Virus record (IMG/VR): IMGVR_UViG_3300043172_001414
Reading direction: 5' to 3' (one strand)
DNA: 64,000 bases
Origin: a virus
Taxonomy: Duplodnaviria; Heunggongvirae; Uroviricota; Caudoviricetes
Below the pieces are notes generated by a model. It was not told the origin of the DNA. It was given only the letters and a program-made list of their open reading frames with translations, and ran no database searches. The position numbers were made by a program, and so were the translations under genes. This document shows, piece by piece, positions 12,201-64,000 of the stretch (position 1 is its first letter; each line of letters begins with the position of its first letter).

Positions 12201-13284
12201 TATCTGCAATTGATTCATAATGCGGGGAAAATTTAAGGTCTGCAACTAAACCATCGTTTATGCGAAGGTCATCTAATGTGGGTGCTAATTCAGTGTAATC
12301 AATAGAAACTGAAGTAGTTGCGCTTGCACTTGGTTGTGATGGATAGCTATAGCTAAGGTCGAAGTCATATGTTCTATAGTCACCACTTGTAAATATAAAA
12401 GTCTCATCTATTGCAGTAGCATAAGGTGCGCCTACATCTACATCAATTTCTAATCCTGATGTGGCTGTATAACTTGTACCAAATGTTTCAGCATCAATTG
12501 AAGTAAGTCCTACATAATTAAGTGATGGTACTTTAGTTACTAGTTGAGCAAATGAACTTTCTTCATTACCAAAGTCATCAGGGTATGGGCCTACAACTAA
12601 ATTATTATCACCTGGTTGTAGTGATACTGCAGGTTCTGTTGCAGATGTTCCACCAGTCCATTCTAATCCAGCGCTTGTTGTAAATACGCCACCTAAAACA
12701 TAAGTAAGATCTACTTGATATTCCGGGGTTTCAACAGGGTCTGTGACATTTGCATTATTATCAACTGCAACAATATAAATGTCGGGAGTATATCGTAATA
12801 CTATTGTATTATCGGCTGAAAATGTATCTGCATTAGGATCAGTTAATGTATATATTACAGTATTGTCACCTTGAAAATTAATATTGTCTTCTAGGTTAAC
12901 TAAAGTATAGTCTGTATTTATTAGTTGATCTGGAACGTCATCTGACCATGCACCGCCTGATAATGTTGCGGACAGCTCAGGGTTAACTATAAAAGAAAAC
13001 CCTGAAGTTGATATAATATTAAATGTTTCTGCAACATTAATTGTAACATCTCTAGATTGTGCACCAGAGGTTATATTGACATCATTTTGCCCATACGAAT
13101 ATGTAAATGATTGCACTTCGTAACCTATTGATGGGTGTCTATTGCCACTATCATCTATAACAAAATATCTAAGCTCGTAATTTAAGTCCATGGTTGTTCC
13201 TGTATTTAGAACGTACCCACCTACCAATCTTATTCCGGGGACTGTTACACTTCCCCCAAACCAAAAGCCTTTCCATATACTCAT
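9259..13284 (-). CDS. Large virion structural protein (tail fibre or baseplate-associated, 1341 aa)
   Basis: Very long ORF rich in Thr/Ser/Gly/Asn, in the structural module; a late promoter lies upstream at about 13651. Confidence 0.55.
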   Translation of the reverse strand: MSIWKGFWFGGSVTVPGIRLVGGYVLNTGTTMDLNYELRYFVIDDSGNRHPSIGYEVQSFTYSYGQNDVNITSGAQSRDVTINVAETFNIISTSGFSFIVNPELSATLSGGAWSDDVPDQLINTDYTLVNLEDNINFQGDNTVIYTLTDPNADTFSADNTIVLRYTPDIYIVAVDNNANVTDPVETPEYQVDLTYVLGGVFTTSAGLEWTGGTSATEPAVSLQPGDNNLVVGPYPDDFGNEESSFAQLVTKVPSLNYVGLTSIDAETFGTSYTATSGLEIDVDVGAPYATAIDETFIFTSGDYRTYDFDLSYSYPSQPSASATTSVSIDYTELAPTLDDLRINDGLVADLKFSPHYESIADTTVTPKQDTQSGVSIAMTGSGTNKLTYDPDQPNTGSLSRRFYNGQTMYQRERAWWVNNGDDFVPAIRYESSFNGVDDKIEIVGSEAWMPTGSDWTYHLTDRVTTLEIGTLLSKGINGSGNETEINMNGTGELSLVYGGVSCGVIATQEADIYNFITLKYNSTSKEITVWFDGEVLIDAFDVTGAQSNTSTIVKHCRRTGASTFDNYLNGYCHHDRYYDKMFDNKHKDAFFYNVYFSFMIPFSGDSTGGGVYRYLNNHYLYYGYGDGDDVFMMVANYGGRTFYDVSVPDDYTAPAYTTGGRPDLLEWETIGHSTSNVNHVVDRCLCNIYSRSLTQNWVGAEYYEGPEVYSEYMDALAAEKAICDSFNVPMILSGTIPQGVLDGGVDHLTTPAYLYMKPVDDQIKATYNSSIINDIWNSSLDERHWWVYNDINGASQADAFNDDPRFPSWENWKRFSDISHPSIAQYYRICRRWSDLYDSILDGLNLLPTYTDPRLTADAYFDAIDDTTIVYRDEPTESVEYIENKGTDLSIPNLKNLRCDHILRRNDYGNGIKSIGGTGLGEIAIVDLVDSKLWNTDEFTVSITFIRDVYSKASVDHTGLTSSNMWIANINAPEGDILELANPHNSGAVTKNAIGMNDSVDTDILYGKELVTYTYSAYMDGGTPKYRMSHSRLFDSEIIGGIRSFDVTSENTPLLLFAEHTRDANSNFEPSNYGITKDEIVKVSSWDRALSTAEIRSIEYFDKQLPFIANGDFEYYQESDYTPTAPVLPTLALVNSWACDAIVGDQLVDTVNGFNIDLFGTPSVENDGIVMNAVTDYGVLTGSEKTHLNPFESWTLSFQVKFKTSSQTTTSTGLIGAINRANGYGWSSGVRVTSNKLNGIPNSWSDPDTITKDVWINVQLVNDWVSGTTRMYFDGLQKATGARAKINSLPMSLMISSDDDVTFNADTTTTQIDTVIRNISYYCGAATQTEVNTINAGLPSV

Positions 13285-19364: not shown

Positions 19365-21182
19365 TTATAGGCTTAGCTCTGCTAATCTTCGTCTTGCTTC
19401 TCTTGTTCTAAGAATCTGTTTTGATGATTCTGTAATTTCATTGAAGGCATTAATATATCCTTTTAATACCATCTCTTTCTTTACGGATTCATCTAACTCA
19501 TCACCTGCTTTTGTTAACAGACCTTTCATAGCTACAAGAACATCATCTGAAGGTAGGCCAACTACTTTTTCTGTAATTGAATCTATTAGAGCTTCTGCTC
19601 TGTCTTCAGCTGATTCTTTTTTACCATTCTTAAGGTTTGCTTTAGCTGCGGCTTCGGCTTCTTTTCCAAATTCAGTAACGTTCTGACTTTCGTCTTTCTC
19701 ATCACCTTCTTTTTCTTTACCTTTGCCTTTCATCTTCTTCTTGAAGTTGAACTCTTTGTCGTCATCTTCAACGTCTTTACCTTCTGGTTCGACAGCTTCT
19801 TTTGGCACAGGAGTGTTAGCTACGGCTTGCTTAGTAGTTGTTGTTTTGGTAGTGCCTTTCTTGAACTTCCCACCAGGCAAAGAAACATCGTCTCTAGAGT
19901 CGATTCCTTCAATCCCTTTAACATTACCAGCATCAAAAACAGCTTCATCTTTCATTTTCTTTCTGATTTTAGCGTTCTTAATTCCATTGATGTCGTTGTC
20001 ATCATTGTCGTAATCACCATGTTTTTCCAATTTAGCATCGATCTTATCTTTGTTTATGATTTTCTTTCCCTGTGCAGGGTTAGAAGATGCTACGTTCGGG
20101 TTTGAAACACCTTTGAATACATCCATAGACTCTTGATCTTTGTATGATTCGGCTTGTTGGCTACCTTGAAGAGCTGCTAAATGCGATGTTCTTTGAGACT
20201 GAAGTGAATCTGCTTCACCTGCAGCTTTTACCATTGCAGCAAAAGAGTCTGAAGTTTTAAGGTCAGCGTCTCTAGATTTTTCACCTGCGTGTTGAGATGA
20301 ATTAAATTTCTCTAACTCTTTAACTCTTGCGTCAGTAAGCTTGTCAGCTTCGTCGCCACCTTTAGTGAATGTTCCAGTACTATTAGTTGATTGAGCATCG
20401 GCAGTTATTTTTTTGCCTTGAACTTGTTTGCTCTTTAGCTTTTCCTGAGTGGCTAATCTCTGAGCCATTACTTTCTCAGAATCAGCAATTCCTGATTTTA
20501 CTTCGCCACCGATAGATGGATCAACATCTGGATTCTTTGAAGATCCAGCCTGTGGTCTTCCTTCAGTAAAAGTAAACTTGTCGATAAAGTCAATAGATTC
20601 TCTTTTATCTACACCATGATGATCTCTTTGTCCCGACATTTCTGTAGAGCCTAATTGAGTATTTTTCTGTGTAGAAAGATCGCCTTGTCTTTTACCTTTA
20701 AGTTTCTTAGTCTCATCTTTTCCATCTTTAATAGCTTTTTCGCTATTAGAACTGTCAAGATCAGATGTGAAAGTTTTAGAACCTTTGTGTTGGAAAGTGC
20801 TTAGTTTATTGAGATCAGCTTGTCTTTGGGCTTGCGCTGTAGACTCGTTGTCTTTATAACCTTCATAATCAGATATGTTTCCTGATTTCTCTATATCACT
20901 TGTATGTGATTTAGAACCACCTTGTTGTGCACTTGCTTGAGTATTGATTGCAGTTTGTCTCTTATTCTGAGTAGTTACCTCATCAGAAATTTGAGATTTG
21001 AAATCTGCAGCTGCCATAGTACCACCAGCATGAGGATCTGCCTCATCTAGATTTGCGGTATCTATATTGCTTTCATACTCTACATCATCTTCAGGATCTG
21101 TTTGAGTAGTAACAACCACTGGTTGTACAACTATCTTATTAGATTCTCTAAGGAATTGTGTTACGTATTTTGCTATAGACAT
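19365..21182 (-). CDS. Low-complexity K/D/E/G/S-rich protein (possible internal virion or ejection protein)
   Basis: 605 aa; late promoter at about 21230; terminator downstream at about 19311-19341. Confidence 0.45.
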   Translation of the reverse strand: MSIAKYVTQFLRESNKIVVQPVVVTTQTDPEDDVEYESNIDTANLDEADPHAGGTMAAADFKSQISDEVTTQNKRQTAINTQASAQQGGSKSHTSDIEKSGNISDYEGYKDNESTAQAQRQADLNKLSTFQHKGSKTFTSDLDSSNSEKAIKDGKDETKKLKGKRQGDLSTQKNTQLGSTEMSGQRDHHGVDKRESIDFIDKFTFTEGRPQAGSSKNPDVDPSIGGEVKSGIADSEKVMAQRLATQEKLKSKQVQGKKITADAQSTNSTGTFTKGGDEADKLTDARVKELEKFNSSQHAGEKSRDADLKTSDSFAAMVKAAGEADSLQSQRTSHLAALQGSQQAESYKDQESMDVFKGVSNPNVASSNPAQGKKIINKDKIDAKLEKHGDYDNDDNDINGIKNAKIRKKMKDEAVFDAGNVKGIEGIDSRDDVSLPGGKFKKGTTKTTTTKQAVANTPVPKEAVEPEGKDVEDDDKEFNFKKKMKGKGKEKEGDEKDESQNVTEFGKEAEAAAKANLKNGKKESAEDRAEALIDSITEKVVGLPSDDVLVAMKGLLTKAGDELDESVKKEMVLKGYINAFNEITESSKQILRTREARRRLAELSL

Positions 21183-54185: not shown

Positions 54186-54258
54186 CGCTACCGTAGCTCA
54201 GTTGGCAGAGCGCCATATTTGTATTATGGATGTCACGGGTTCGATGCCTGTCGGTAGC
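54186..54258 (+). tRNA. tRNA-Thr (anticodon TGT)
   Basis: Hand-folded cloverleaf: acceptor GCTACCG/CGGTAGC, D-loop AGTTGGCA, anticodon loop TTTGTAT, T-arm ACGGGTTCGATGCCTGT. Confidence 0.8.
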
Positions 54259-54318
54259 TTAATATCAGTTCGATAGCAATCTGTTGCTTTTATAAATACT
54301 CATAAATAAGAGATATTT

Positions 54319-54960
54319 ATGAAAACAGATTGCACTAAAACTGATGGGTGGAAAGCCGCTCAAATAAAAACTAAAGTAACTTGCAAAGAAAAAACAAGAT
54401 TATTTAAATTAAATTATTTGGAGACTCCCAATTTATGTAAACAGTGTAGTTGTAAACTACCATTCGAAAAGAGATCCAATAAATTTTGCTCTCATAGTTG
54501 TTCAGCGTCATTTAATAATAAGGGCGTTAGAAGGCATGGGTATGAAAATATATTGGAATTCTGTCTACACTGCAATACAAAATTGACAACCCAAAAAAAG
54601 TTTTGTGATATTGATTGTAAAAATGATTATTATCACCAACAGTTTTTATTACAATGGAAATGTGGAAATCATAACGGGCTTAGAGGTGAATATAATCTAT
54701 CTGCCCATATAAGAAGATACATATTTGAAAAATATGATAGTAAATGCTGTCAATGTGGATGGGATGAAAAACACCCTTCTGATGGAAAAATACCATTAGA
54801 TATAGATCATATTGACGGTGATTATAATAATAATAATGAAGATAATTTAAGATTATTATGCCCTAATTGTCATTCATTAACACTAACATATAAATCCAGA
54901 AATAAAAACGGTAGAAAACAAAGAAAAAAATATTATAAAAAATGTGCGTTGCAATTGTGA
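54319..54960 (+). CDS. HNH homing endonuclease
   Basis: CQCGW…DIDHIDGDYNNNNEDNLRLLCPNCH. Confidence 0.75.
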   Translation: MKTDCTKTDGWKAAQIKTKVTCKEKTRLFKLNYLETPNLCKQCSCKLPFEKRSNKFCSHSCSASFNNKGVRRHGYENILEFCLHCNTKLTTQKKFCDIDCKNDYYHQQFLLQWKCGNHNGLRGEYNLSAHIRRYIFEKYDSKCCQCGWDEKHPSDGKIPLDIDHIDGDYNNNNEDNLRLLCPNCHSLTLTYKSRNKNGRKQRKKYYKKCALQL

Positions 54961-55260
54961 CTTACTTCGTTTTTCATTAACATGAAAGAAATCAAGGTTC
55001 AATTCCTTGTTTCCCCACCTGGTAGATTCTGTCTATCCGGTGGGGAAATAGCCCAATTGGTAGAGGCAATTCAAATTCAGTTATGATGATTTTTACCATA
55101 TTTTTTATTTTAAACATTTTTAAAAATGTGTGTTGCAAATTTGACTTACTTCGGATAAAAAAAACAATTCTAATGTTAATATCTTGGTTCAAATCCAGGA
55201 ACCGCCACTAAGTGGATAATGTCTATTTGGTGGCGGTTTAAAATAAATCAGTCATGTTAC
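54937..55260 (+). repeat. Tandem duplicated about 100-nt module: 33-nt direct repeat, T-arm-like hairpin and a 9-10 bp stem-loop (possible small stable RNAs)
   Basis: Direct repeat aaaaatgtgYgttgcaaWttgtgacttacttcg at about 54937 and 55122. Hairpins at about 55010-55048 and 55200-55238, each preceded by GGTTCAA(T/A)TCC, with loops sharing TGTCTAT. Confidence 0.5.
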
Positions 55261-55283
55261 CCTTTACCACATTTTTAATTATT

Positions 55284-55355
55284 GGTCGTATCGTCCAGTG
55301 GTTAGGACAGCAGCTTTTCAAGCTGAAAACCGGAGTTCAATTCTCCGTACGACTA
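55284..55355 (+). tRNA. tRNA-Glu (anticodon TTC)
   Basis: Acceptor GGTCGTA/TACGACT, D-stem GTCC/GGAC, anticodon loop TTTTCAA, T-arm CGGAGTTCAATTCTCCG. Confidence 0.7.
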
Positions 55356-55358
55356 TTA

Positions 55359-55431
55359 TGCGAGGAAGAGCAGTCCGGTCGCTTGCTGGCCTCATAAGCC
55401 AGAGTCCGTAGGTTCAAATCCTACCCTCCGC
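55359..55431 (+). tRNA. tRNA with CAT anticodon (Met or Ile2), imperfect acceptor and D stems
   Basis: Anticodon arm CTGGC-CTCATAA-GCCAG and T-arm GTAGGTTCAAATCCTAC; two A-C mismatches in the acceptor stem. Confidence 0.5.
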
Positions 55432-55450
55432 TATTATATTAATAAAACTT

Positions 55451-55525
55451 TGCAGGATCGAACAGTCTGGACGTTCAAATGGCTCATAACCATTATAGAC
55501 GGTGGTTCAAATCCACCTCCTGCTA
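55451..55525 (+). tRNA. tRNA with CAT anticodon (initiator-like, unpaired 1:72)
   Basis: Anticodon arm AATGG-CTCATAA-CCATT, D-stem GAAC/GTTC, T-arm GGTGGTTCAAATCCACC; T1-T72 mismatch. Confidence 0.6.
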
Positions 55526-55534
55526 TTTTTTTAT

Positions 55535-55607
55535 TGGCGTGTAGCACAACTGGAAGTGCACCACCCTTTGACGGTGAAGGTTGTCAGTTCGAGTCTGACC
55601 ACGCCAT
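55535..55607 (+). tRNA. tRNA-Gln (anticodon TTG)
   Basis: Acceptor TGGCGTG/CACGCCA (U1:A72 as in bacterial tRNA-Gln), D-stem GCAC/GTGC, anticodon loop CTTTGAC, T-arm GTCAGTTCGAGTCTGAC. Confidence 0.8.
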
Positions 55608-55610
55608 TCT

Positions 55611-55695
55611 GGAAGGTACTGACCAATGGTGGTCAAGCAGTTTTGAACGCTGTGGCGTGGGTGAAACCACGGGGGTTCGATTCCTCTACTTTCCT
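55611..55695 (+). tRNA. tRNA-Ser (anticodon TGA), type II
   Basis: Acceptor GGAAGGT/ACTTTCC, D-stem TGAC/GTCA, anticodon loop TTTGAAC, long variable arm CGTGG-GTGAAA-CCACG, T-loop TTCGATT. Confidence 0.65.
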
Positions 55696-55745
55696 TACAG
55701 ATGTACAAGAATAAGACCCCTCATCTATAAAAATTGGGGTCACGA

Positions 55746-55822
55746 GCCGGATTAGCTCAGCCTGGTTAGAGCGGAACCTTCATACGGTTTGTCTGTCACT
55801 GGTTCAAATCCAGTATCCGGTA
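55746..55822 (+). tRNA. tRNA with CAT anticodon (third copy)
   Basis: Acceptor GCCGGAT/ATCCGGT, D-arm GCTC-AGCCTGGTTA-GAGC, anticodon loop TTCATAC, T-arm ACTGGTTCAAATCCAGT. Confidence 0.7.
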
Positions 55823-55827
55823 CTATA

Positions 55828-55901
55828 GGGGTCATAGCTTAGTTGGCTAAAGCACTTGCCTGTCACGCAAGAGATCGTCGGTTCGAGTCCGTCTGTCCTC
55901 G
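55828..55901 (+). tRNA. tRNA-Asp (anticodon GTC)
   Basis: D-arm GCTT-AGTTGGCTA-AAGC, anticodon arm CTTGC-CTGTCAC-GCAAG, T-loop TTCGAGT, discriminator G. Confidence 0.7.
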
Positions 55902-55916
55902 TTTTAAAGGAACAAC

Positions 55917-56192
55917 ATGAGAGAGTACAATATTTTATTATCGCAGACCCAGCAGAGAGCGTATGAAAATATAAAATCTGCTAAAAAAGTAATATGGTAT
56001 GTAGCAGAACATAAAGCTTTTTTACATAAATCTAAAACTGAAGTAAACATGAATACATTTATGTCACTCCTTATAATAGGATTACTAAAATGGAACAGAA
56101 CAGTTAGTCATCATTATGATATGGAAGAATATATCATAGATGAAAATACAGAAAAATTATTAACTAAATACTTGACTATAACTGAAAAATAG
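55917..56192 (+). CDS. Hypothetical protein
   Basis: 91-aa ORF within the tRNA island. Confidence 0.35.
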   Translation: MREYNILLSQTQQRAYENIKSAKKVIWYVAEHKAFLHKSKTEVNMNTFMSLLIIGLLKWNRTVSHHYDMEEYIIDENTEKLLTKYLTITEK

Positions 56193-56229
56193 TATATAAT
56201 ATTTATATACTATCAAACGGAATAATATT

Positions 56230-56598
56230 ATGAACGAACATACAATTTACTATCATTTTAGATACGCAGGGCCTTTTGGAAAACTAGCGGTTGGTGCTAA
56301 TAAGCTCGAACCTGTACTTCAGTTTACACCTATAAAAAACCCACACAGTAATGGTGGAGTTACAATCGCTGTAAGAGAGAGTGGAGATAATCTATTCTTT
56401 GGTGTTGCTAAATGCGCTCTATCAGATACTTATAGCAAAAGTTATGGAAGAGTACGAGCTGAAGGTATCAGTAGAAGTGCAAAATCTCTCAGAACCGAGA
56501 AGATGGATAAAGACGACATCACCAAAACTGCAGTTGAATTAGCTCAGTTGGTAGGTAGCAGATTCAGCCTTGAAGACGCTGTTTCACAATTAGCTTAA
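56230..56598 (+). CDS. Hypothetical protein
   Basis: 122-aa ORF. Confidence 0.4.
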   Translation: MNEHTIYYHFRYAGPFGKLAVGANKLEPVLQFTPIKNPHSNGGVTIAVRESGDNLFFGVAKCALSDTYSKSYGRVRAEGISRSAKSLRTEKMDKDDITKTAVELAQLVGSRFSLEDAVSQLA

Positions 56599-56765
56599 GG
56601 TACTCACAGTACCTATCCTCCAAAAAGTTACTCATATTACTTTTCAAAAAATTGAGTGGATGAGATTACAAGCCTCTCCATTATAAAAAACTTGTTCTCC
56701 TTTCGTTATAAATGATGGTCAGTTGCTGCTTGCAGTAACTGACCTTTTTAATAAAGGAAAATCAA

Positions 56766-56850
56766 TGGCGAATATCCGAGTTGGTAGCAGGAGGCGCACT
56801 GTTAATGCGTTGGAGAAATCCCACCGTAGGTTCGAGTCCTACTTTGCCAG
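56766..56850 (+). tRNA. Type-II-shaped tRNA with GTT (Asn) anticodon and discriminator G
   Basis: Acceptor TGGCGAA/TTTGCCA, 3-bp D-stem, anticodon arm GCGCA-CTGTTAA-TGCGT, 15-nt variable region, T-arm GTAGGTTCGAGTCCTAC. Confidence 0.5.
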
Positions 56851-56896
56851 TTTTTAACATTTATACATACTCATATAGTTTATTGGTAACATTGAT

Positions 56897-57508
56897 ATGA
56901 GTAAAATTAACAAAGAATTAAGCATAGCAGATAGACAAGCCTTAGGTGCTAGATGCACAAAGGAACATATTATAAATGCTTTCGGAAATTGTTGCACTGT
57001 ATGTGGATATAATAAAAGTCCTGCGGTTTTAGCGTTTCACCATATCAATCCTGGTGAAAAAGAAACCTCATTTGCATCAAAATTAATGACAAAAAAAATA
57101 TGGCCTCGCCTGGTTAAAGAATTAAGAAAATGTATTTTAGTTTGTCATAACTGCCACGCTGAGATACATCAAGGGATAACTAAAGTACCAAGGAACGCTA
57201 TCCAGTTTGATGAACTATATTCTTTGTATTGGGTTGAAGATAAACATTCCGATAAATGCGTTTGTGGAAATAAAAAAGAAATATGGAAACAAACATGTTC
57301 TGAAAAATGTACTAGAGTTATTAGAGGCATAAAAATATCGCACAGCAAAACTAATTTAAAATGGAAAGACATTGATTTGATTAATGAACTAAAAACTCAA
57401 ACCATATCTGAGTTATCCCGTTCACTGGGCTGTGGATGGGATACAGTAAAAAGAAATTATGACAAACAAAAAGAGGTTTGCAATGTCAATGAAGTTAGAC
57501 ACATTTAG
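56897..57508 (+). CDS. HNH homing endonuclease
   Basis: CTVCGY…AFHHINP…LVCHNCH. Confidence 0.75.
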   Translation: MSKINKELSIADRQALGARCTKEHIINAFGNCCTVCGYNKSPAVLAFHHINPGEKETSFASKLMTKKIWPRLVKELRKCILVCHNCHAEIHQGITKVPRNAIQFDELYSLYWVEDKHSDKCVCGNKKEIWKQTCSEKCTRVIRGIKISHSKTNLKWKDIDLINELKTQTISELSRSLGCGWDTVKRNYDKQKEVCNVNEVRHI

Positions 57509-57734
57509 AAATCTAAGCGAACGATTATTTGACGAACGGCTTAGACTAGAGTTTTATTATAACGAAATTAAAGATTGCAATCGAGTAATATCAATTGGTC
57601 TTCGTGAATATAACATCACTCTTAAAGATGGAAGAAAACTAACAAACAAAGATTTTATGAACTCTTTAGATTTCAATGTTAAATTTAAATGTGAGATGGA
57701 TCTTAGATATGTACTGGACAGGAGAATTTACTAA
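57459..57734 (+). CDS. Hypothetical protein
   Basis: 91-aa ORF overlapping the HNH gene's 3' end. Confidence 0.3.
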   Translation: MTNKKRFAMSMKLDTFRNLSERLFDERLRLEFYYNEIKDCNRVISIGLREYNITLKDGRKLTNKDFMNSLDFNVKFKCEMDLRYVLDRRIY

Positions 57735-58045
57735 TGAAATATTTGCATTGTAGGATAGCAGACTGGGGAGAATTAGTAGACTGGTTTGAGATTGATTATA
57801 ATGATGATGACAGCATTAACGCAGAAGAAGTAAGAAAGAAATTGAGCGCCATTATTCTAGAGACTACTGGCAACCCATCTGAAGTAACAAAATTTCAGAT
57901 AGGCCAACTTCGTAAGTATGTTAAAGCAATAGCTAAAGCAGACACGAGTTACCCTAGACCAATATGGATAGGGCTATCTAAAATAAAAGATGATTATACA
58001 TTTATTCAATTTCTTAGTACACTATTGGAGCATTTATGGGTGTAG
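57734..58045 (+). CDS. Hypothetical protein
   Basis: 103-aa ORF. Confidence 0.35.
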   Translation: MKYLHCRIADWGELVDWFEIDYNDDDSINAEEVRKKLSAIILETTGNPSEVTKFQIGQLRKYVKAIAKADTSYPRPIWIGLSKIKDDYTFIQFLSTLLEHLWV

Positions 58046-58242
58046 AGGATTACATATCTTTAACAGATAAACAAATAAAATTAATTGATGACTGGACTAA
58101 TCATCACATTTGTATATCAGCTGATAATAATAAACCGATATGGTTTAACAAAACATCCGATGTAGATGTCGGAAAAACTTTAAAAATTAAATGTGGTTTC
58201 TGTGATACTGAATATGATATTACAGATATCGACACATGGTAG
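58036..58242 (+). CDS. Hypothetical small protein
   Basis: 68-aa ORF. Confidence 0.3.
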   Translation: MGVEDYISLTDKQIKLIDDWTNHHICISADNNKPIWFNKTSDVDVGKTLKIKCGFCDTEYDITDIDTW

Positions 58243-58323
58243 GAATATGTCTGAAATAATAATAATAATATTTTTTATTGTATATAGCCTCTATGTGGAA
58301 TACAATAAATACAAGTAAAGCAC

Positions 58324-58410
58324 GGGTATGTGCGCACTGTTGGTAAGTGTAGCGAGGCTGTAACCCTCGTGGCTTAATCTCCTACGGGGGTTCGAATCCC
58401 TTCATGCCCA
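58324..58410 (+). tRNA. tRNA-Tyr (anticodon GTA), type II; D-region irregular
   Basis: Acceptor GGGTATG/CATGCCC, anticodon arm CGAGG-CTGTAAC-CCTCG, long variable arm, T-loop TTCGAAT, followed by a T-run. Confidence 0.6.
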
Positions 58411-58418
58411 TTTTTTAA

Positions 58419-58910
58419 TTGAGGAATAGTATGACATTTTTTGTTAGCGGTCATAGAGATATAACCACAAAAGAATTTGAAGAACATTATATTCCAACAC
58501 TCGATATGATAATCGAAAACAACGAACATGTTGTTGTAGGTGATTGTCCTGGCGTTGACGAAATGACCCTTAACTATTTATGGGAAAAAGGTCATCGAAA
58601 AGCGACAGTATATTATATCGGGTTGCGACCAATGAACAACCCTGGCTTTGCCGGAGTTAACTATTGGTTCGACTCAGATGAAAATAAACATATTAGCAAT
58701 ACTTTTATTTTAGATTCTGATACAAGACGAGATTTCGTAATGACCATGAATTCAGATCAAGACATTGCCTGGCTAAGAGAAGGTAATGAAAGATCTGGAA
58801 CAGGAATGAATGTTTTAAGACGAGAATGGCTGATTGAAGAAGATGCTGACCTCACTTACGATTCACTCTATGAAAAATGGGAAATTAATGAAGCTAATCA
58901 ATACATTTAA
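58419..58910 (+). CDS. Putative LOG/SLOG (DprA/YpsA-like Rossmann) domain protein
   Basis: FFVSGHR … GDCPGVDEMTLNYL resembles the LOG-family PGGxGTxxE motif; 163 aa. Confidence 0.35.
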   Translation: MRNSMTFFVSGHRDITTKEFEEHYIPTLDMIIENNEHVVVGDCPGVDEMTLNYLWEKGHRKATVYYIGLRPMNNPGFAGVNYWFDSDENKHISNTFILDSDTRRDFVMTMNSDQDIAWLREGNERSGTGMNVLRREWLIEEDADLTYDSLYEKWEINEANQYI

Positions 58911-58911
58911 T

Positions 58912-58983
58912 GGGTTGTGCTCAGGGTAAGCGGAAAATCTTTGCAAGATTTTTGCCTGATCGGTTCGATTCCGATACGATCCA
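58912..58983 (+). tRNA. tRNA-Ala-like (anticodon TGC), D-arm not resolved
   Basis: Acceptor GGGTTGT/ACGATCC (two G-U pairs), anticodon arm AAATC-TTTGCAA-GATTT, T-arm ATCGGTTCGATTCCGAT. Confidence 0.5.
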
Positions 58984-59090
58984 CTTTTAACAGCCGTAGT
59001 TGCAAAAGACTGTTACACCCAAAGCTTATTGTGAACCTGAAGGAACATTACTGTTTTAATTGGGAACCGCTTTGTAAGAAGACTATGCCA

Positions 59091-59165
59091 GCACCAGTAA
59101 CTCAGTCCGGTCAGAGTCCCTGATTTCCAATCAGGTGGTCGGGAGTTCGAATCTCCCCTGGTGCT
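59091..59165 (+). tRNA. tRNA-Gly (anticodon TCC)
   Basis: Acceptor GCACCAG/CTGGTGC, D-stem ACTC/GAGT, anticodon arm CCTGA-TTTCCAA-TCAGG, T-arm GGGAGTTCGAATCTCCC. Confidence 0.8.
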
Positions 59166-59201
59166 TTATTCCGTTAATAATAAATTGAAAAAGGAAAATA
59201 T

Positions 59202-59879
59202 ATGACAAGACCAAATTTTACCGAAATAATAGCAATCATTGATAGATCAGGATCTATGCAGTCGCTAACACCAGAAACTATTTCTGGATACAACTCATTT
59301 CTTAAAGAACAAAAAGAAATCGAAGATGAAACAAATATATCCTTAGTTCTATTTAACCATACTCATGAATACATTTATGATAATGTACCAATTAAGAAAG
59401 TTAAAAAACTAAAGAAACAAATCTATATGGCTCATGGTATGACAGCTATGAACGATGCCATTGGTACTGCAATCACAACAGCTGGTGCTCGTCTAGCAAA
59501 GATGGAAGAACATGAAAGACCAAGCAAGGTAATAGTTCTCATCATCACTGACGGTCAAGAAAACAGCTCAAGAGAATACAGAACATCTCAAATCAAAGAG
59601 ATGATTGATAAGCAACAAAATACTTACTCGTGGGAATTCATATTCCTTGGAGCTAATATAGATGTGGATCAATATGCTGCAGACTATGGTTTCAAAGCAG
59701 GTAAATTTGCCATGTACGATCAATCAAGCAAAGGCACTACCGCAGTATTTGATTCTATGTCAACCGCTGTAACCAATGAAAGAGGCTTTAGTATTGATGA
59801 CTCTGGTGAACGGACAAGATCTGCAGGAACTGTAAATTATAGCATGGACACCATATACACAAAATCGATGAATAAATAA
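59202..59879 (+). CDS. von Willebrand factor type A (vWA) domain protein
   Basis: MIDAS motif (IIDRSGSM), TDGQEN; 225 aa. Confidence 0.65.
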   Translation: MTRPNFTEIIAIIDRSGSMQSLTPETISGYNSFLKEQKEIEDETNISLVLFNHTHEYIYDNVPIKKVKKLKKQIYMAHGMTAMNDAIGTAITTAGARLAKMEEHERPSKVIVLIITDGQENSSREYRTSQIKEMIDKQQNTYSWEFIFLGANIDVDQYAADYGFKAGKFAMYDQSSKGTTAVFDSMSTAVTNERGFSIDDSGERTRSAGTVNYSMDTIYTKSMNK

Positions 59880-59881
59880 TC

Positions 59882-59923
59882 AACTAAAGTATAGCAGTTG
59901 TCAATAAATGTTATACTTTAGTT
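59882..59923. repeat. 12-bp perfect inverted repeat AACTAAAGTATA / TATACTTTAGTT with an 18-nt spacer
   Basis: Lies between the vWA gene and tRNA-His; the arms are copies of a recurrent genome motif. Confidence 0.55.
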
Positions 59924-59929
59924 TTCGCC

Positions 59930-60002
59930 CCCGTGATAGTTCAACTGGTTAGAACCTCGGCCTGTGAAGCCGGTAATCTCGGCTCGATTCCGAGTCACTG
60001 GA
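59930..60002 (+). tRNA. tRNA-His (anticodon GTG), one acceptor mismatch
   Basis: D-arm GTTC-AACTGGTTA-GAAC, anticodon arm TCGGC-CTGTGAA-GCCGG, T-arm CTCGGCTCGATTCCGAG. Confidence 0.6.
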
Positions 60003-60015
60003 CTTTGGAGGATTT

Positions 60016-60246
60016 ATGAGTAGAAGTTTTAAATACAGACCGTTCTATAGTAAACACAATGATTTCAAAGAACTGAAACACGTCAATAAGTCATACCGTT
60101 TACACATGAAAAATCTCATCGTGTCAGAACGAATAGATCTAATTCACAAGGAATACCATAAACATAAAAGTGATTGGATGTGGGGATATGGTGGCTCATA
60201 TATAAGTCACCTTAGTGATGATTACGATAAAGCAATGAGGAAGTAA
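60016..60246 (+). CDS. Hypothetical small basic protein
   Basis: 76-aa ORF. Confidence 0.35.
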   Translation: MSRSFKYRPFYSKHNDFKELKHVNKSYRLHMKNLIVSERIDLIHKEYHKHKSDWMWGYGGSYISHLSDDYDKAMRK

Positions 60247-60247
60247 T

Positions 60248-60478
60248 ATGTTTTGGCCCTTTATGAAATCAAAAAAGAAAGAAGTGGAAGAGAATCCGTC
60301 ATACTCTATAGTACTATCATCTGAACAAGCAATAAAAGTATTGATCTGGAAAGGACAACACGATTGTACTTCAGTTAATGTATCTAAAAGAAAGATTTGG
60401 ATGAGACAAGATAAAATTGGAAAAAAGAAAGTAACAACAATAAAATGTGATATGTGCTCAAAGGTACATGTACTATAG
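60248..60478 (+). CDS. Hypothetical small protein
   Basis: 76-aa ORF. Confidence 0.35.
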   Translation: MFWPFMKSKKKEVEENPSYSIVLSSEQAIKVLIWKGQHDCTSVNVSKRKIWMRQDKIGKKKVTTIKCDMCSKVHVL

Positions 60479-60550
60479 GTGTGTGGCCCAGTTGGTTGGG
60501 GCAATACTCTGATAAGGTAAAGGACGCTGGTTCGATCCCAGCCACACCTA
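60477..60550 (+). tRNA. tRNA-Ile (anticodon GAT)
   Basis: Acceptor AGGTGTG/CACACCT (A1:U72 as in bacterial tRNA-Ile), D-arm GCCC-AGTTGGTTG-GGGC, anticodon loop CTGATAA, T-arm GCTGGTTCGATCCCAGC. Confidence 0.7.
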
Positions 60551-60574
60551 CTTATTATAAAAGAAGGACGAGAG

Positions 60575-61138
60575 ATGGAAGAGATAAAAGGAAATGATGT
60601 AAAATTTAAAGATAGTTTGAAGATTAATTTTTTAGGTGTGGCAATACTCAAACAAGACTTTGTATTCGAACACACTTATAAGACCGAGTGGAAAGGCAAG
60701 AGCACTATTGAGACCAACTATAATGACACCATATACACACACAATCATACTATCAAACATAAGGTCGTCCAATGTTCAGACCTTCCAGCTGATGAAACAC
60801 ATTACAGACGATTCGCAGAAAAACCTAAATATCATTGCTACCTTTTACTCGACATTGGAAGCATCTTATCTCAACCCATTATATTCTGGTCAATGGAATA
60901 TAAGACAGAACGGTCAGTACGAGAAATGATTGAACTTTGTAACAATACAGCTAAAGCAGTTATGAAGAAAAGAACTGCAAAGAAAACTACAGTGATGGCA
61001 AATGTAATTGCAGATTTTAAACTAAAGTATGGCAAAGAAAAAATACCCATCAGAATGATTACTGCAGACTTTGCAGTTAAGAAACATCTTCCTGGAATAG
61101 CAAGGGAAGCACATAGAAATCAGAAACAATTTATTTAA
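60575..61138 (+). CDS. Hypothetical protein
   Basis: 187-aa ORF. Confidence 0.4.
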   Translation: MEEIKGNDVKFKDSLKINFLGVAILKQDFVFEHTYKTEWKGKSTIETNYNDTIYTHNHTIKHKVVQCSDLPADETHYRRFAEKPKYHCYLLLDIGSILSQPIIFWSMEYKTERSVREMIELCNNTAKAVMKKRTAKKTTVMANVIADFKLKYGKEKIPIRMITADFAVKKHLPGIAREAHRNQKQFI

Positions 61139-61177
61139 TACTTTAGTTTAAATATACAATTCAATATACTTTAGTTT

Positions 61178-61310
61178 GCTATATTGGTCTGAAGCAGGAT
61201 GGAGGATACAGAAATGTATCGGTTACTCTGGGGACGGAGTTTCATGCTTTCGGCAAGACATATCTTCGGTAATACAAGGTAGGACATGGGTTCGACTCCC
61301 ATATATAGCT
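61178..61310 (+). ncRNA. 133-nt tRNA-like RNA: perfect 7-bp acceptor pairing plus canonical T-arm, but about 60 extra internal nucleotides
   Basis: 5' GCTATAT pairs with 3' ATATAGC; T-arm ATGGGTTCGACTCCCAT; internal GATAC/GTATC hairpin; no canonical cloverleaf fits. Confidence 0.4.
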
Positions 61311-61314
61311 TAAC

Positions 61315-61388
61315 GGGTTTCTAGCTCAATTGGTTAGAGCAGCAGTCTCATAATCTGCAGGTACTGGGTTCGATCCCCAGGAAGCCCA
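61315..61388 (+). tRNA. tRNA with CAT anticodon (fourth copy; Met or Ile2)
   Basis: Acceptor GGGTTTC/GAAGCCC, D-arm GCTC-AATTGGTTA-GAGC, anticodon loop CTCATAA, T-arm CTGGGTTCGATCCCCAG. Confidence 0.7.
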
Positions 61389-61400
61389 TAATATAATCAC

Positions 61401-61475
61401 AGCCGTGTAGCTCAGTTGGTCTAGAGCAGCACTCTTACAAAGTGAAGGTCGGGAGTTCGACTCTCCCCTCGGCTA
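61401..61475 (+). tRNA. tRNA-Val (anticodon TAC)
   Basis: D-arm GCTC-AGTTGGTCTA-GAGC, anticodon arm GCACT-CTTACAA-AGTGA, T-arm GGGAGTTCGACTCTCCC; one acceptor mismatch. Confidence 0.7.
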
Positions 61476-61490
61476 TTAACAAGGAATAAC

Positions 61491-61700
61491 ATGCACCCAT
61501 TAAAAGAAGCTTACAATGCCAGTAATGAAGGCATAAAAGACATGAAAGAAGTCATAGCGGAACATGAGAAAAATAAAAATGAAACACCGTCAATGATCAA
61601 ATTCTATGATGAACAAATTGAAAAGTATAACAAAATAATTCAATCTCTCGAAAACATAAACAGAGAGATTGAAAAACATGATAAGTTTCATGCATGGTAA
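61491..61700 (+). CDS. Hypothetical small protein
   Basis: 69-aa ORF between tRNAs. Confidence 0.35.
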   Translation: MHPLKEAYNASNEGIKDMKEVIAEHEKNKNETPSMIKFYDEQIEKYNKIIQSLENINREIEKHDKFHAW

Positions 61701-61706
61701 ATTATT

Positions 61707-61779
61707 GCAGCCGTAGCTCAGCAGGTAGAGCAGGAAACTGAAAATTTCTGTGTCACTGGTTCAATTCCGGTCGGTTGCA
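61707..61779 (+). tRNA. tRNA-Phe (anticodon GAA)
   Basis: Acceptor GCAGCCG/CGGTTGC, D-arm GCTC-AGCAGGTA-GAGC, anticodon arm GGAAA-CTGAAAA-TTTCT, T-loop TTCAATT. Confidence 0.8.
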
Positions 61780-61798
61780 TTTATATTGAGGAGGGCTT

Positions 61799-62065
61799 AT
61801 GCCACAACTAAGAAGAATCCCTGACGGGATAGGCGACTCAGGAGCACGCTCTGAAGCCATCAAATGGAATGCTGACGGCACGCTTGATGAGATTGTAGGG
61901 CGTAGACCAGTCGTTGGTTGTTCGATGCTTGTAGGCTCTCTCACAGCCCGTAGTTACAGCGGTCAAGATTACTGGTTAACTACCGTAGTAACTGAAGTAC
62001 TTGAAGAAAGGGAAGATTATGTCAAGTTTAAAACTGAGAATTCCATCTACGAATGGATAATTTAA
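61799..62065 (+). CDS. Hypothetical protein
   Basis: 88-aa ORF, relatively GC-rich. Confidence 0.35.
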   Translation: MPQLRRIPDGIGDSGARSEAIKWNADGTLDEIVGRRPVVGCSMLVGSLTARSYSGQDYWLTTVVTEVLEEREDYVKFKTENSIYEWII

Positions 62066-62150
62066 TAACAATCGTAAAATGTGATTAACATCACTGCCTA
62101 TATAATATTAATTTGTATCTTATATTATATAAATTAAATATGGTTTTATT

Positions 62151-62927
62151 ATGAAATTACAATTTTTAGGTTCTGGAAACGCTTTCACATTACTAAACTA
62201 TCAGTCTGCAGCAATGTTAACTCATAATGATAAGAACTTTCTTATTGATTGTGGTAGTGATACACGATTCAGCGCTGATAAGTGTGGCTTTACATTCTCT
62301 GATATTGATGCGGTTTATGTATCTCACCTTCACGGTGATCATATAGGTGGACTTGAATGGTTAGGATTTACTACCTATTTCACACCAAATGTTGATAGAC
62401 CAAAACTCTTTATTGAGAAGGCATTAATATCAGACTTGTGGTTATCTCTTAAAGGTGGAATGGAAAGCCTACAAGGTAAGATAGCTACACTTGATACATA
62501 CTTTGAAGTTATGCCCATCGAAGTCAACCATCCATTTAATTGGAATGGTATCAGCTTTGATGCAGTACAAACACTGCACATAACAAACAAGTATAAGCAT
62601 GTACCAAGCTATGGTTTAATGTGGTCAACCGAAGAAGACAAACGAGCTTACTTTACAACTGATTGTCAGTACGCTCCCGAATCTTCAATGATGGCATTCT
62701 ACAAAGAAGCTGATTATATCTTCCATGACTGTGAAACTGCACCATATGAATCTGGTGTTCACGCTCATTATAATCAGCTAAAGCAATTACCGGAAGAAGT
62801 TAAAAATAAAATGCACTTGTATCATTATCAAGATAATATTATCGAAGATTTTGAGAACAAAAGCAAAGAAGCAAATTGTGATGGCTTCATGGGATTTGTC
62901 CGCAAGGGAGCTATCATAACATTATAA
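62151..62927 (+). CDS. Metallo-beta-lactamase-fold hydrolase (RNase Z/ElaC-like or cyclic-nucleotide-hydrolase-like)
   Basis: HxHxDH motif (VSHLHGDHIGG) and downstream His/Asp ligands; 258 aa; embedded in the tRNA island. Confidence 0.7.
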   Translation: MKLQFLGSGNAFTLLNYQSAAMLTHNDKNFLIDCGSDTRFSADKCGFTFSDIDAVYVSHLHGDHIGGLEWLGFTTYFTPNVDRPKLFIEKALISDLWLSLKGGMESLQGKIATLDTYFEVMPIEVNHPFNWNGISFDAVQTLHITNKYKHVPSYGLMWSTEEDKRAYFTTDCQYAPESSMMAFYKEADYIFHDCETAPYESGVHAHYNQLKQLPEEVKNKMHLYHYQDNIIEDFENKSKEANCDGFMGFVRKGAIITL

Positions 62928-62932
62928 ACAAT

Positions 62933-63005
62933 GGGTGTGTAACTCAGTTGGTAGAGTACTAAACTTTTAATTTAGGAGCCGTGTGTTCAATCCTCACCAC
63001 ACCCA
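62933..63005 (+). tRNA. tRNA-Lys (anticodon TTT)
   Basis: Acceptor GGGTGTG/CACACCC, D-stem ACTC/GAGT, anticodon arm CTAAA-CTTTTAA-TTTAG, T-loop TTCAATC. Confidence 0.75.
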
Positions 63006-63094
63006 TTTTTTTATAATAAATAATCATCCAGCCTTATAATCATCAACTAAAGATTAGTCCTCATCAACTAAAGTTTAGTCAATCCGTCCCATAG

Positions 63095-63158
63095 CCAAGT
63101 CCGGCTAAGGCAACTGTTTGCAACGCAGTCATCGTGAGTTCGAATCCCACTGGGACGT
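63095..63158 (+). tRNA. tRNA-Cys (anticodon GCA)
   Basis: Acceptor CGTCCCA/TGGGACG, anticodon arm ACTGT-TTGCAAC-GCAGT, T-loop TTCGAAT. Confidence 0.6.
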
Positions 63159-63174
63159 TTTAAAAGGATATATT

Positions 63175-63396
63175 ATGAAAAATTTTTTAATCAAAGTGGG
63201 GAACCACGCAATAAGAGTAGAAGATAATACATCACTCAATTACACTAAATTAGATATTGATGAGGTATTTATTAAATCCATCGAAAAGTCTATATTAAAC
63301 GGCTTGGATAATGGTTGTATTACACTCATGCTACGAGATGATAATGATTTCTCGCATACAGATAGAGGAAAAATGTATTGGGAAATACATACATAA
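63175..63396 (+). CDS. Hypothetical small protein (internal start chosen to avoid overlap with the tRNA)
   Basis: 73 aa from MKNFLIKVG…; ribosome-binding site AAAGGA upstream. Confidence 0.4.
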   Translation: MKNFLIKVGNHAIRVEDNTSLNYTKLDIDEVFIKSIEKSILNGLDNGCITLMLRDDNDFSHTDRGKMYWEIHT

Positions 63397-63496
63397 AATT
63401 TATTTACTACAGTACATAAAATCTATTGACACCTGTATATAAAGTAATTACTTTAGTTAATACCTTATATTCACTTCAACAGGTACGGAGGTTATT

Positions 63497-64000
63497 ATGT
63501 TACTCAGTAAAGAAGAGACAATCGAAATAAAAGGTATAGGTGTTATCATTGGGAGATTCCAGGTCAAGGATCTTACTCAAGGACACCGTGATATAATTGA
63601 AACAGTTATTGGCCGTCATGAAAAAGTCATTTGTGTTCTAGGTGCTGCACCAGTGTCGGGAGGATCTGAAAACCCTCTAGATATTGAGAGCAGACGACAA
63701 ATGATATCTCAAGCTTATCCAGATATTCAAATTCTATATAATGATGATCAACCTACTAACAAAGGTTGGTCAAAGAAATTAGATAGTTTGATTAAGTATA
63801 ACACACCACCGTTAGCAGAAGTAACTCTCTATGGAAGTAGAGAATCTTTTAAACCTTACTATTTGGGATTATTCCCAGTGGTAGAGCTAATACAGGAGTC
63901 TTATACATCCGGTACGAGTGAAAGAAGAAACGCATCCTATAAAGTCATTAACTCTTCAGATTGGAGAGCTGGTGCTATATGGAATGCCAACAACAGATTC
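63497..64000 (+). CDS. Nicotinamide-nucleotide adenylyltransferase (NatV/NadM-like), 3'-truncated by the window end
   Basis: Cytidylyltransferase (H/T)xGH motif (IIGRFQVKDLTQGHRDII); ribosome-binding site GGAGG upstream; the ORF runs to the window edge. Confidence 0.55.
   Translation, partial: MLLSKEETIEIKGIGVIIGRFQVKDLTQGHRDIIETVIGRHEKVICVLGAAPVSGGSENPLDIESRRQMISQAYPDIQILYNDDQPTNKGWSKKLDSLIKYNTPPLAEVTLYGSRESFKPYYLGLFPVVELIQESYTSGTSERRNASYKVINSSDWRAGAIWNANNRF

Follow-up and report, generated by a model that had tools for sequence, protein, structure and literature searches.

An Apyc1-family gene lies within a phage tRNA island

The stretch of DNA analysed here (the window) comprises 64,000 nucleotides of an uncultured tailed phage, IMG/VR record IMGVR_UViG_3300043172_001414, and carries at 62151..62927 on the plus strand a gene for a 258-residue protein with a metallo-β-lactamase (MBL) fold, flanked on both sides by tRNA genes. 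The original prediction, made from the sequence of the window, had offered two families for this product: RNase Z/ElaC-like nucleases that process tRNA 3′ ends, and Apyc1-type anti-Pycsar enzymes that hydrolyse cyclic CMP (cCMP) and cyclic UMP (cUMP). Our analysis assigns the protein to the Apyc1 family, an assignment supported by profile, sequence, structure and residue checks, while the RNase Z/ElaC alternative fails the tests specific to that family.

The open reading frame (ORF) begins with ATG and spans exactly 62151..62927 (+), and its start codon is backed by the N-terminal consensus MxLxFLGTG in an alignment of its homologs. An HxHxDH metal-binding motif, reading HLHGDH at residues 59–64 (H59, H61, D63 and H64; codons at 62325..62342, +), is invariant in 38/38 members of the protein's clade as well as in the Apyc1 proteins of SBSphiJ, BSP38 and phage G. 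No clear Shine-Dalgarno sequence was seen ahead of the ATG, and in the region 61000–64000 both promoter-like sites (11 found, 12.0 expected) and terminator-like sites (1 found, 1.2 expected) stayed at background. Six metagenomic contigs, of up to 248,963 bp, encode this protein in identical form.

Profiles, homologs and fold assign the protein to Apyc1

The known Apyc1 set consists of Bacillus phage SBSphiJ gene 147 and the proteins of phage BSP38 (7T28), Paenibacillus sp. J14 (7U2R) and P. xerothermodurans (7U2S). Our protein matches the corresponding Pfam profile, PF23023 (Anti-Pycsar_Apyc1), with 101.1 bits against a gathering score of 50 (E 9e-29), and residues 2–239 align to profile positions 4–233 of 250. 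In a large protein database 1992 homologs were retrieved at E ≤ 1e-10, and the best 120 listed all carry PF23023; the match in PHROGs names merely a ‘metal-dependent hydrolase’. The best sequence matches among proteins in the PDB are full-length and all Apyc1, namely 7U2S (2.6e-29), 7U2R (2.9e-29) and 7T28 (3.7e-24), whereas matches to RNase Z, ELAC and YhfI are confined to the first 70–85 residues, with E between 1e-5 and 4e-4.

Profiles of related families in NCBIfam all stay under their cutoffs. The models for RNase BN (TIGR02649, 23.7 against 563.7 bits), RNase Z/BN (NF000801, 59.3 against 252) and RNase Z (TIGR02651, 51.6 against 292.95) match within residues 1–71 only, and those for PhnP (TIGR03307, 25.3 against 272 bits) and YhfI-like cyclic-nucleotide phosphodiesterases (NF041851, 14.6 against 400 bits) score lower than their cutoffs as well.

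To this we added an AlphaFold2 single-chain model, built from an alignment of 38 clade sequences, which reached a predicted local distance difference test score (pLDDT) of 95.4 and a predicted template modelling score of 0.92. The modelled MBL fold is nearest to solved Apyc1 structures, not to other MBL phosphodiesterases, with a root-mean-square deviation (rmsd) of 1.6 Å to 7U2R; Foldseek comparison with YhfI (6KNS) gave a template modelling score of about 0.72–0.79 and an rmsd of 3.4–3.9 Å. Together, the ORF, the motif, the PF23023 match and the model confirm the predicted MBL-fold protein at this position; profile match, number of homologs and model confidence go well past what chance would produce. 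The fold comparison with RNase Z, PhnP and Apyc1 that had been proposed as a check came out clearly on the side of Apyc1, and the closest homologs are Apyc1 proteins rather than the lactamase or glyoxalase II enzymes that had been raised as an adverse outcome.

Two groups of related proteins help to delimit this assignment. YhfI of B. subtilis (6KNS, NF041851) belongs to the same superfamily, is of similar size and converts cyclic mononucleotides (cNMPs) to 5′-NMPs, but the sequence match of our protein to 6KNS covers residues 1–73 only. Unlike Apyc1, YhfI has no extended loop, and its preferred substrates are cAMP and cGMP (PMC9117128). MBLBt2-type proteins (7FCT) of Bastille-like Bacillus phages and QQO92874.1 of Staphylococcus phage Madawaska resemble our protein in being phage-encoded and found by the Apyc1 hidden Markov model (HMM) or by tblastn; in them, however, GS(L/V)G replaces GGLE, so that the Glu is absent, and LKGG is missing, whereas our protein keeps both motifs.

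The metal site and catalytic Glu of Apyc1 are conserved, beside a presumed nucleotide-binding loop

Apyc1 is an MBL-fold homodimer with a two-zinc HxHxDH site, to which E74 and Y112 (SBSphiJ numbering) are contributed by the opposing protomer (PMC9117128). Our protein was aligned with the translated genes of SBSphiJ, BSP38 and phage G, and the SBSphiJ numbering was read from the translation. Across the clade, and in the reference Apyc1 proteins as well, there is no variation at H59, H61, D63, H64, H143, D171, D193, H204 and H225. In the same alignment E69, within HGDHIGGLE, pairs with the catalytic E74 of SBSphiJ, within HADHIGGLE; its codon lies at 62355..62357 (+), and the position is occupied by Glu in 36/38 clade members and by Asp in the other 2/38. 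E74 is needed for cCMP hydrolysis by SBSphiJ Apyc1 (PMC9117128).

On the basis of the model and the alignment, the segment G103–F118 (62457..62504, +), which follows the LKGG helix, is the presumed Apyc1-specific nucleotide-binding loop; we equate it with the loop described in the literature because the position of SBSphiJ Y112 falls within it. Residues 105–113 are unstructured in the model, at a pLDDT of about 93. In length, the segment after LKGG equals its counterparts in 7U2S and phage G, exceeds that of the active enzyme 7U2R by one residue and falls short of that of SBSphiJ by two; it measures 16 residues in 31/38 clade members. Weak or absent activity on cNMPs is reported for Apyc1 homologs in which the nucleotide-binding loop is shorter or longer (PMC11724313). 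Judged by sequence, G103–F118 is presumably the loop donated to the partner subunit. The protein would be a homodimer that completes its active sites in trans.

None of the tRNA genes in the island encodes CCA

The gene lies within an island of 18–19 co-oriented tRNA genes interspersed with small ORFs (54187..63158, +). In the span 54187–63158 ARAGORN detects 18 tRNA genes, each of them on the plus strand; Rfam confirms most of these and adds one that ARAGORN missed, at 55360–55432 (+), with 46 bits and the anticodon loop CTCATAA (CAT). The earlier description of the gene as embedded among about 20 tRNA genes therefore holds. Upstream, a tRNA-Phe gene (GAA; 61706..61780, +) ends 371 nt before the gene; downstream, a tRNA-Lys gene (TTT; 62932..63006, +) starts 5 nt past the stop codon and is followed by a tRNA-Cys gene (GCA; 63085..63158, +).

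For each tRNA gene we located the acceptor stem and read the tail beyond it. An encoded CCA after the discriminator base was found in 0 of the 18 ARAGORN tRNAs, these three neighbours included, nor in the additional Rfam tRNA, T-rich sequence taking its place. The claim that several, or most, of these genes lack CCA was thus correct and understated. Since no tRNA gene encodes CCA, all must rely on trailer removal and CCA addition. Among the ORFs of the island, the part of the roughly 249-kb genome that was searched for such functions, there is no CCA-adding enzyme or other tRNA-maturation gene.

The protein is not an RNase Z

CCA-less tRNAs of phage T4 are classic substrates of host RNase BN/Z, through which RNase BN was discovered. 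Because of this precedent, and because all tRNA genes of the island are CCA-less, an RNase Z identity merited a real test. An RNase Z/ElaC-like endonuclease would trim the 3′ trailers of the CCA-less pre-tRNAs at the discriminator base, and the host CCA-adding enzyme would finish the ends. The position of the gene, with tRNA-Phe before it and tRNA-Lys after it in the same orientation, speaks for such an enzyme, as do the features that our protein shares with RNase Z/BN/ElaC (TIGR02651, TIGR02649; 1Y44, 2CBN): the MBL fold, HxHxDH, a class II phosphodiesterase scaffold, presumably dimeric in our protein too, and similarity in the N-terminal 70–85 residues. Existing names point the same way. The family is called ‘ribonuclease BN (tRNA processing enzyme)’ by the Joint Genome Institute pipeline, and homologs in GenBank phages are often labelled ‘ribonuclease Z’, ‘ribonuclease BN’ or ‘RNaseZ-like’, including that of Madawaska (L092:33748-34572). 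We regard this as systematic misnaming, traceable to the N-terminal MBL motif that the proteins share, and our assignment corrects a recurrent misannotation of Apyc1-family members as ribonuclease BN/Z.

Beyond the N-terminal region the resemblance ends. BLASTP similarity to E. coli RNase BN stops at residue 76, and where RNase BN has PTRTRNVTA, HEATL and GHSST (the PxKxRN loop, HEAT and HST motifs), our protein has AFTLLNYQS, HDCET and GVHAH, which are Apyc1-type sequences. H143 of motif III and D171 of motif IV, both invariant (codons 62577..62663, +), are separated by 28 residues (24–31 in the clade), compared with 71 in E. coli RNase BN (H141 to D212), and in the model this region forms a β-hairpin only. 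The short gap indicates that the tRNA-binding exosite, of about 45 residues, is absent.

Proximity to tRNA genes was surveyed at 82 viral loci with a homolog, with no matched control for the background frequency of tRNA genes in large phages. In that uncontrolled sample, 58/82 loci have no tRNA within ±10 kb of the gene; one lies within 1 kb in 9/82, a minority that would suit a tRNA nuclease, and tRNA density is flat with distance. At the SBSphiJ, BSP38 and phage G loci there is no tRNA near the gene. A 71%-identical homolog is likewise placed between tRNA-Phe and tRNA-Lys; as it comes from a syntenic sister phage, this agreement adds no independent evidence. Linkage to tRNA genes is not a trait of the family, and the most economical reading is that tRNA clusters are accessory-gene regions, which would explain the minority of large phages with the gene in or near them. 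An RNase Z/ElaC identity fails each family-specific test that we applied (profiles, exosite, motifs and tRNA linkage), and we conclude that the protein is not an RNase Z.

The island has several further peculiarities. Three ARAGORN genes, for tRNA-Met (55450–55526), tRNA-Ser (55611–55695) and tRNA-Ala (58912–58984), are not in the Rfam list at gathering score, and if 55360–55432 is counted the island would hold four tRNAs with a CAT anticodon. The tRNA-Asn gene (GTT; 56766–56850, +; Rfam 48.8 bits) is 85 nt long with a long variable arm, unusual for tRNA-Asn, and its counterpart in the sister phage (L007:4238-4309) is normal, at 72 nt. A VWA-domain protein of 225 residues is also encoded inside the island, at 59202–59879 (+), and is kept in the sister phage.

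The clade is common in large phages and in bacterial chromosomes

In IMG/VR we found at least 80 viral loci with a homolog (86 candidates confirmed), many of them on contigs of 100–550 kb. In species-representative genomes the clade is chromosomal, at 44–54% identity, in Legionella, many cyanobacteria, Parachlamydia, Coxiellaceae, Planctomycetes and others, and, starting from the L. quinlivanii homolog, we found the gene kept across the genus Legionella. Most Apyc1 genes are bacterial, and phages have recruited the gene on at least three occasions (PMC11724313).

Among GenBank phages, homologs were detected in 151 records, of which 144 are from phages of Bacillus, 4 of Staphylococcus and 1 of Xanthomonas, with 2 others; identity never exceeds 34%. 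Queries with the T4-type polymerase and portal each retrieved about 2,600 phage records, mostly of Escherichia, Synechococcus, Klebsiella, Salmonella and Vibrio phages. As none of these hosts appears among the 151 records, T4-type phages infecting them have no detectable homolog, and we detected none in any cultured T4-like phage in GenBank.

The gene therefore differs from known phage Apyc1 in its carrier, a distant T4-superfamily phage rather than a Herelleviridae phage of Bacillus. It differs from known Apyc1 also in its clade, a separate one with bacterial members in Legionella, cyanobacteria and Chlamydiae instead of Bacillales, and in lying inside a tRNA island, beside a NARP2 pair. That the assayed homologs of Legionella sp. 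MW5194 (LESP016) and Synechocystis (SYSP007) are active follows by elimination from the published text (PMC11724313); these two proteins may be orthologous to our clade.

The phage is a distant T4 relative with a NARP2-type pair beside the gene

Megablast of the region 61000–64000 against 50,697 GenBank phage records gave no nucleotide match. The gp43-type polymerase shares about 30–33% identity with the polymerases of cyanophages and of pelagiphage HTVC008M, and the gp20-type portal shows about 30–33% identity to cyanophage and Aeromonas T4-like portals; further T4-type genes encode a gp44-type clamp loader, T4 RNase H and a primase. By these sequences the phage belongs to the wider T4 superfamily as a very distant relative, so that the label ‘T4-like’, which its T4-type polymerase, portal, clamp loader, RNase H and primase bear out, holds only loosely at such identities.

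Identical contigs extending past the window give the order after the gene as tRNA-Lys, tRNA-Cys, an ORF of 73 residues, an NMNAT-Nudix gene (309 residues) and a NAMPT gene (469 residues). The 5′ part of the NMNAT-Nudix gene lies in the window, at 63497..64000 (+), and the gene continues beyond it; both genes are complete on an identical contig (L004:4986-7334). The 309-residue protein combines an N-terminal nucleotidyltransferase signature, GRFQ...TQGH, with a C-terminal NUDIX domain, and the 469-residue protein has NAMPT_N and NAPRTase domains (Pfam). By tblastn, both match phage genes annotated as bifunctional NMNAT/Nudix and NAMPT; an uncultured megaphage has these two side by side in matching order. 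From their sequences we identify the two as a NARP2-type pair. NARP2, composed of Nampt and Nmnat, defeats the NAD+-depleting defences Thoeris and DSR2 (bioRxiv 10.1101/2024.02.11.579819). Further downstream, beyond NAMPT, follow a dUTPase gene and genes for tRNA-Pro, tRNA-Leu and tRNA-Leu.

When proteins encoded within ±4 kb of the gene in 84 loci were clustered, NMNAT-Nudix proteins were near it in 6/84. A conserved operon partner was considered and rejected: the commonest cluster, a NADAR domain, occurred in only 13/84 loci. The setting fits a loose counter-defence or accessory cluster, not a tRNA-maturation operon.

A probable cyclic-nucleotide phosphodiesterase with a proposed anti-Pycsar role

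Our analysis establishes the family membership, fold, catalytic-residue conservation and gene context of the protein. As a whole, we consider an Apyc1-family cNMP phosphodiesterase with an anti-Pycsar role to be the probable explanation. Of its two parts, the enzymology is the firmer: judged by sequence and model, the protein is likely a two-metal cNMP phosphodiesterase of the Apyc1 family. That it helps the phage to evade Pycsar, or other immunity based on cNMPs, appears reasonably likely.

In molecular terms, the protein would be a homodimeric, two-metal (Zn/Mn) class II 3′,5′-cyclic mononucleotide phosphodiesterase. H59, H61, D63, H64, H143, D171 and H225, with D193 and H204 nearby, would hold the metal pair, which would bind the cyclic phosphate, and E69 and loop 103–118 of one subunit would reach into the pocket of its partner. 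The substrate range that we infer comprises cNMPs, including cCMP and cUMP, which would be opened to 5′-NMPs. During infection of a host that carries Pycsar, the enzyme would remove the second messenger of the Pycsar cyclases, and possibly other cNMP signals too, and with the messenger lost the cell-killing effectors would never be switched on. The adjacent NARP2-type pair would meanwhile rebuild NAD+ against NAD+-depleting defences. With the gene beside this pair in an accessory, tRNA-rich region, the locus reads as a counter-defence cluster.

Several points weigh against an anti-Pycsar enzyme. Y112 of SBSphiJ, reported as required for cCMP hydrolysis, corresponds to S106 in our protein. The equivalent of Y112 is also missing in the crystallised Paenibacillus Apyc1 proteins 7U2R and 7U2S, which suggests that it marks the SBSphiJ/BSP38 subgroup, not the whole Apyc1 family. 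Identity to any biochemically validated Apyc1 is only 28–33%, and some HMM-positive members of the family are weak or inactive on cNMPs, for example Madawaska QQO92874.1 (PMC11724313). Insertions, and the absence of the GG motif, of the Glu and of the HDC histidine, set the Madawaska protein apart; ours has none of these defects. As to the role, the association with neighbouring genes is weak, no partner occurring in more than 13/84 loci. The chromosomal occurrence of the clade in bacteria, at the 44–54% identity given above, means that a role in immune evasion is not guaranteed; more than 80% of Apyc1 homologs are chromosomal in bacteria, where they probably regulate housekeeping cNMPs (PMC11724313).

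These last points favour an active cNMP phosphodiesterase serving metabolic or regulatory takeover rather than immune evasion, which would lower host cAMP and cGMP and rewire CRP-type regulation, motility or development, as chromosomal bacterial homologs are thought to do. Apyc1 arose in bacteria for the regulation of cNMP signalling, with more than 80% of copies non-mobile (PMC11724313), the closest clade is conserved chromosomally in Legionella and many cyanobacteria, lineages rich in cAMP signalling, and Apyc1 enzymes cleave all four cNMPs (PMC9117128). On the other side, a NARP2-type pair adjoins the gene, NADAR recurs nearby in other phages, and the only phage Apyc1 proteins tested block Pycsar (PMC9117128); given relaxed specificity, moreover, the two roles are compatible. 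We regard takeover in place of evasion as unlikely.

Somewhat less probable still is a diverged member of the family that acts on another phosphodiester (2′,3′-cyclic phosphates, RNA ends, cyclic oligonucleotides or signals derived from ADP-ribose) or is poor on cNMPs. Our protein agrees with active Apyc1 enzymes in its metal site, its Glu and the length of the presumed loop, its fold lies as close to 7U2R as described above, and with the PhnP model it reaches 25 bits where 272 are required. Also against such divergence stands the activity, deduced by elimination, of the assayed Legionella and Synechocystis homologs, which come from lineages that hold the clade of our protein and may be orthologous to it (PMC11724313).

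A more far-reaching idea is that the protein is a minimal, exosite-less relative of RNase Z, which, alone or besides cNMP hydrolysis, would free the 20-odd CCA-less tRNAs from a polycistronic transcript of the island that also contains its own mRNA. If true, this would be a new type of phage-encoded tRNA 3′-maturation nuclease inside the Apyc1 family; we think it very improbable. In a milder version, the tRNAs, the Apyc1-like enzyme and NARP2 may form one counter-defence module against tRNA-cleaving, cNMP-signalling and NAD+-depleting immunity. A canonical RNase Z/ElaC-like endonuclease, for the reasons given above, is the least probable of all.

As an Apyc1-family cNMP phosphodiesterase, the protein adds to an already known phage counter-defence family and is in that sense unsurprising. 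The view that either family would be notable in this phage was overstated, Apyc1 being widespread in bacteria and several phage acquisitions being known (PMC11724313). The gene belongs to a Legionella/cyanobacteria-type branch of Apyc1 that is common in large uncultured phages (at least 80 viral contigs), one of them a distant T4-superfamily phage; this is consistent with several acquisitions of Apyc1 by phages and may add one, possibly from a Gram-negative or cyanobacterial lineage. Together with the adjacent NARP2-type pair, the gene marks a candidate cluster of anti-defence functions within the tRNA island. If activity is confirmed, anti-Pycsar activity would extend to phages of Gram-negative or cyanobacterial hosts, and the clade would provide a distant sequence for studying the determinants of cNMP specificity.

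Further features of the window and of related loci

Elsewhere in the window, two long ORFs on the minus strand, at 9259–13284 (1341 residues) and 19365–21182 (605 residues), have no PHROG match at E ≤ 1e-5. In the sister phage, the interval between tRNA-Cys and NMNAT-Nudix holds a gene for a tyrosine recombinase of 274 residues (Phage_integrase; L007:11027-11851), where the phage of the window has only the 73-residue ORF. On a viral contig of 117 kb (L008:9586-10969), a NUDIX gene of 140 residues and the start of the MBL homolog share 8 nt, an overlap suggestive of translational coupling. The MBL homolog of that contig carries a C-terminal extension of roughly 60 residues, and an RNA ligase is encoded 7 kb downstream.
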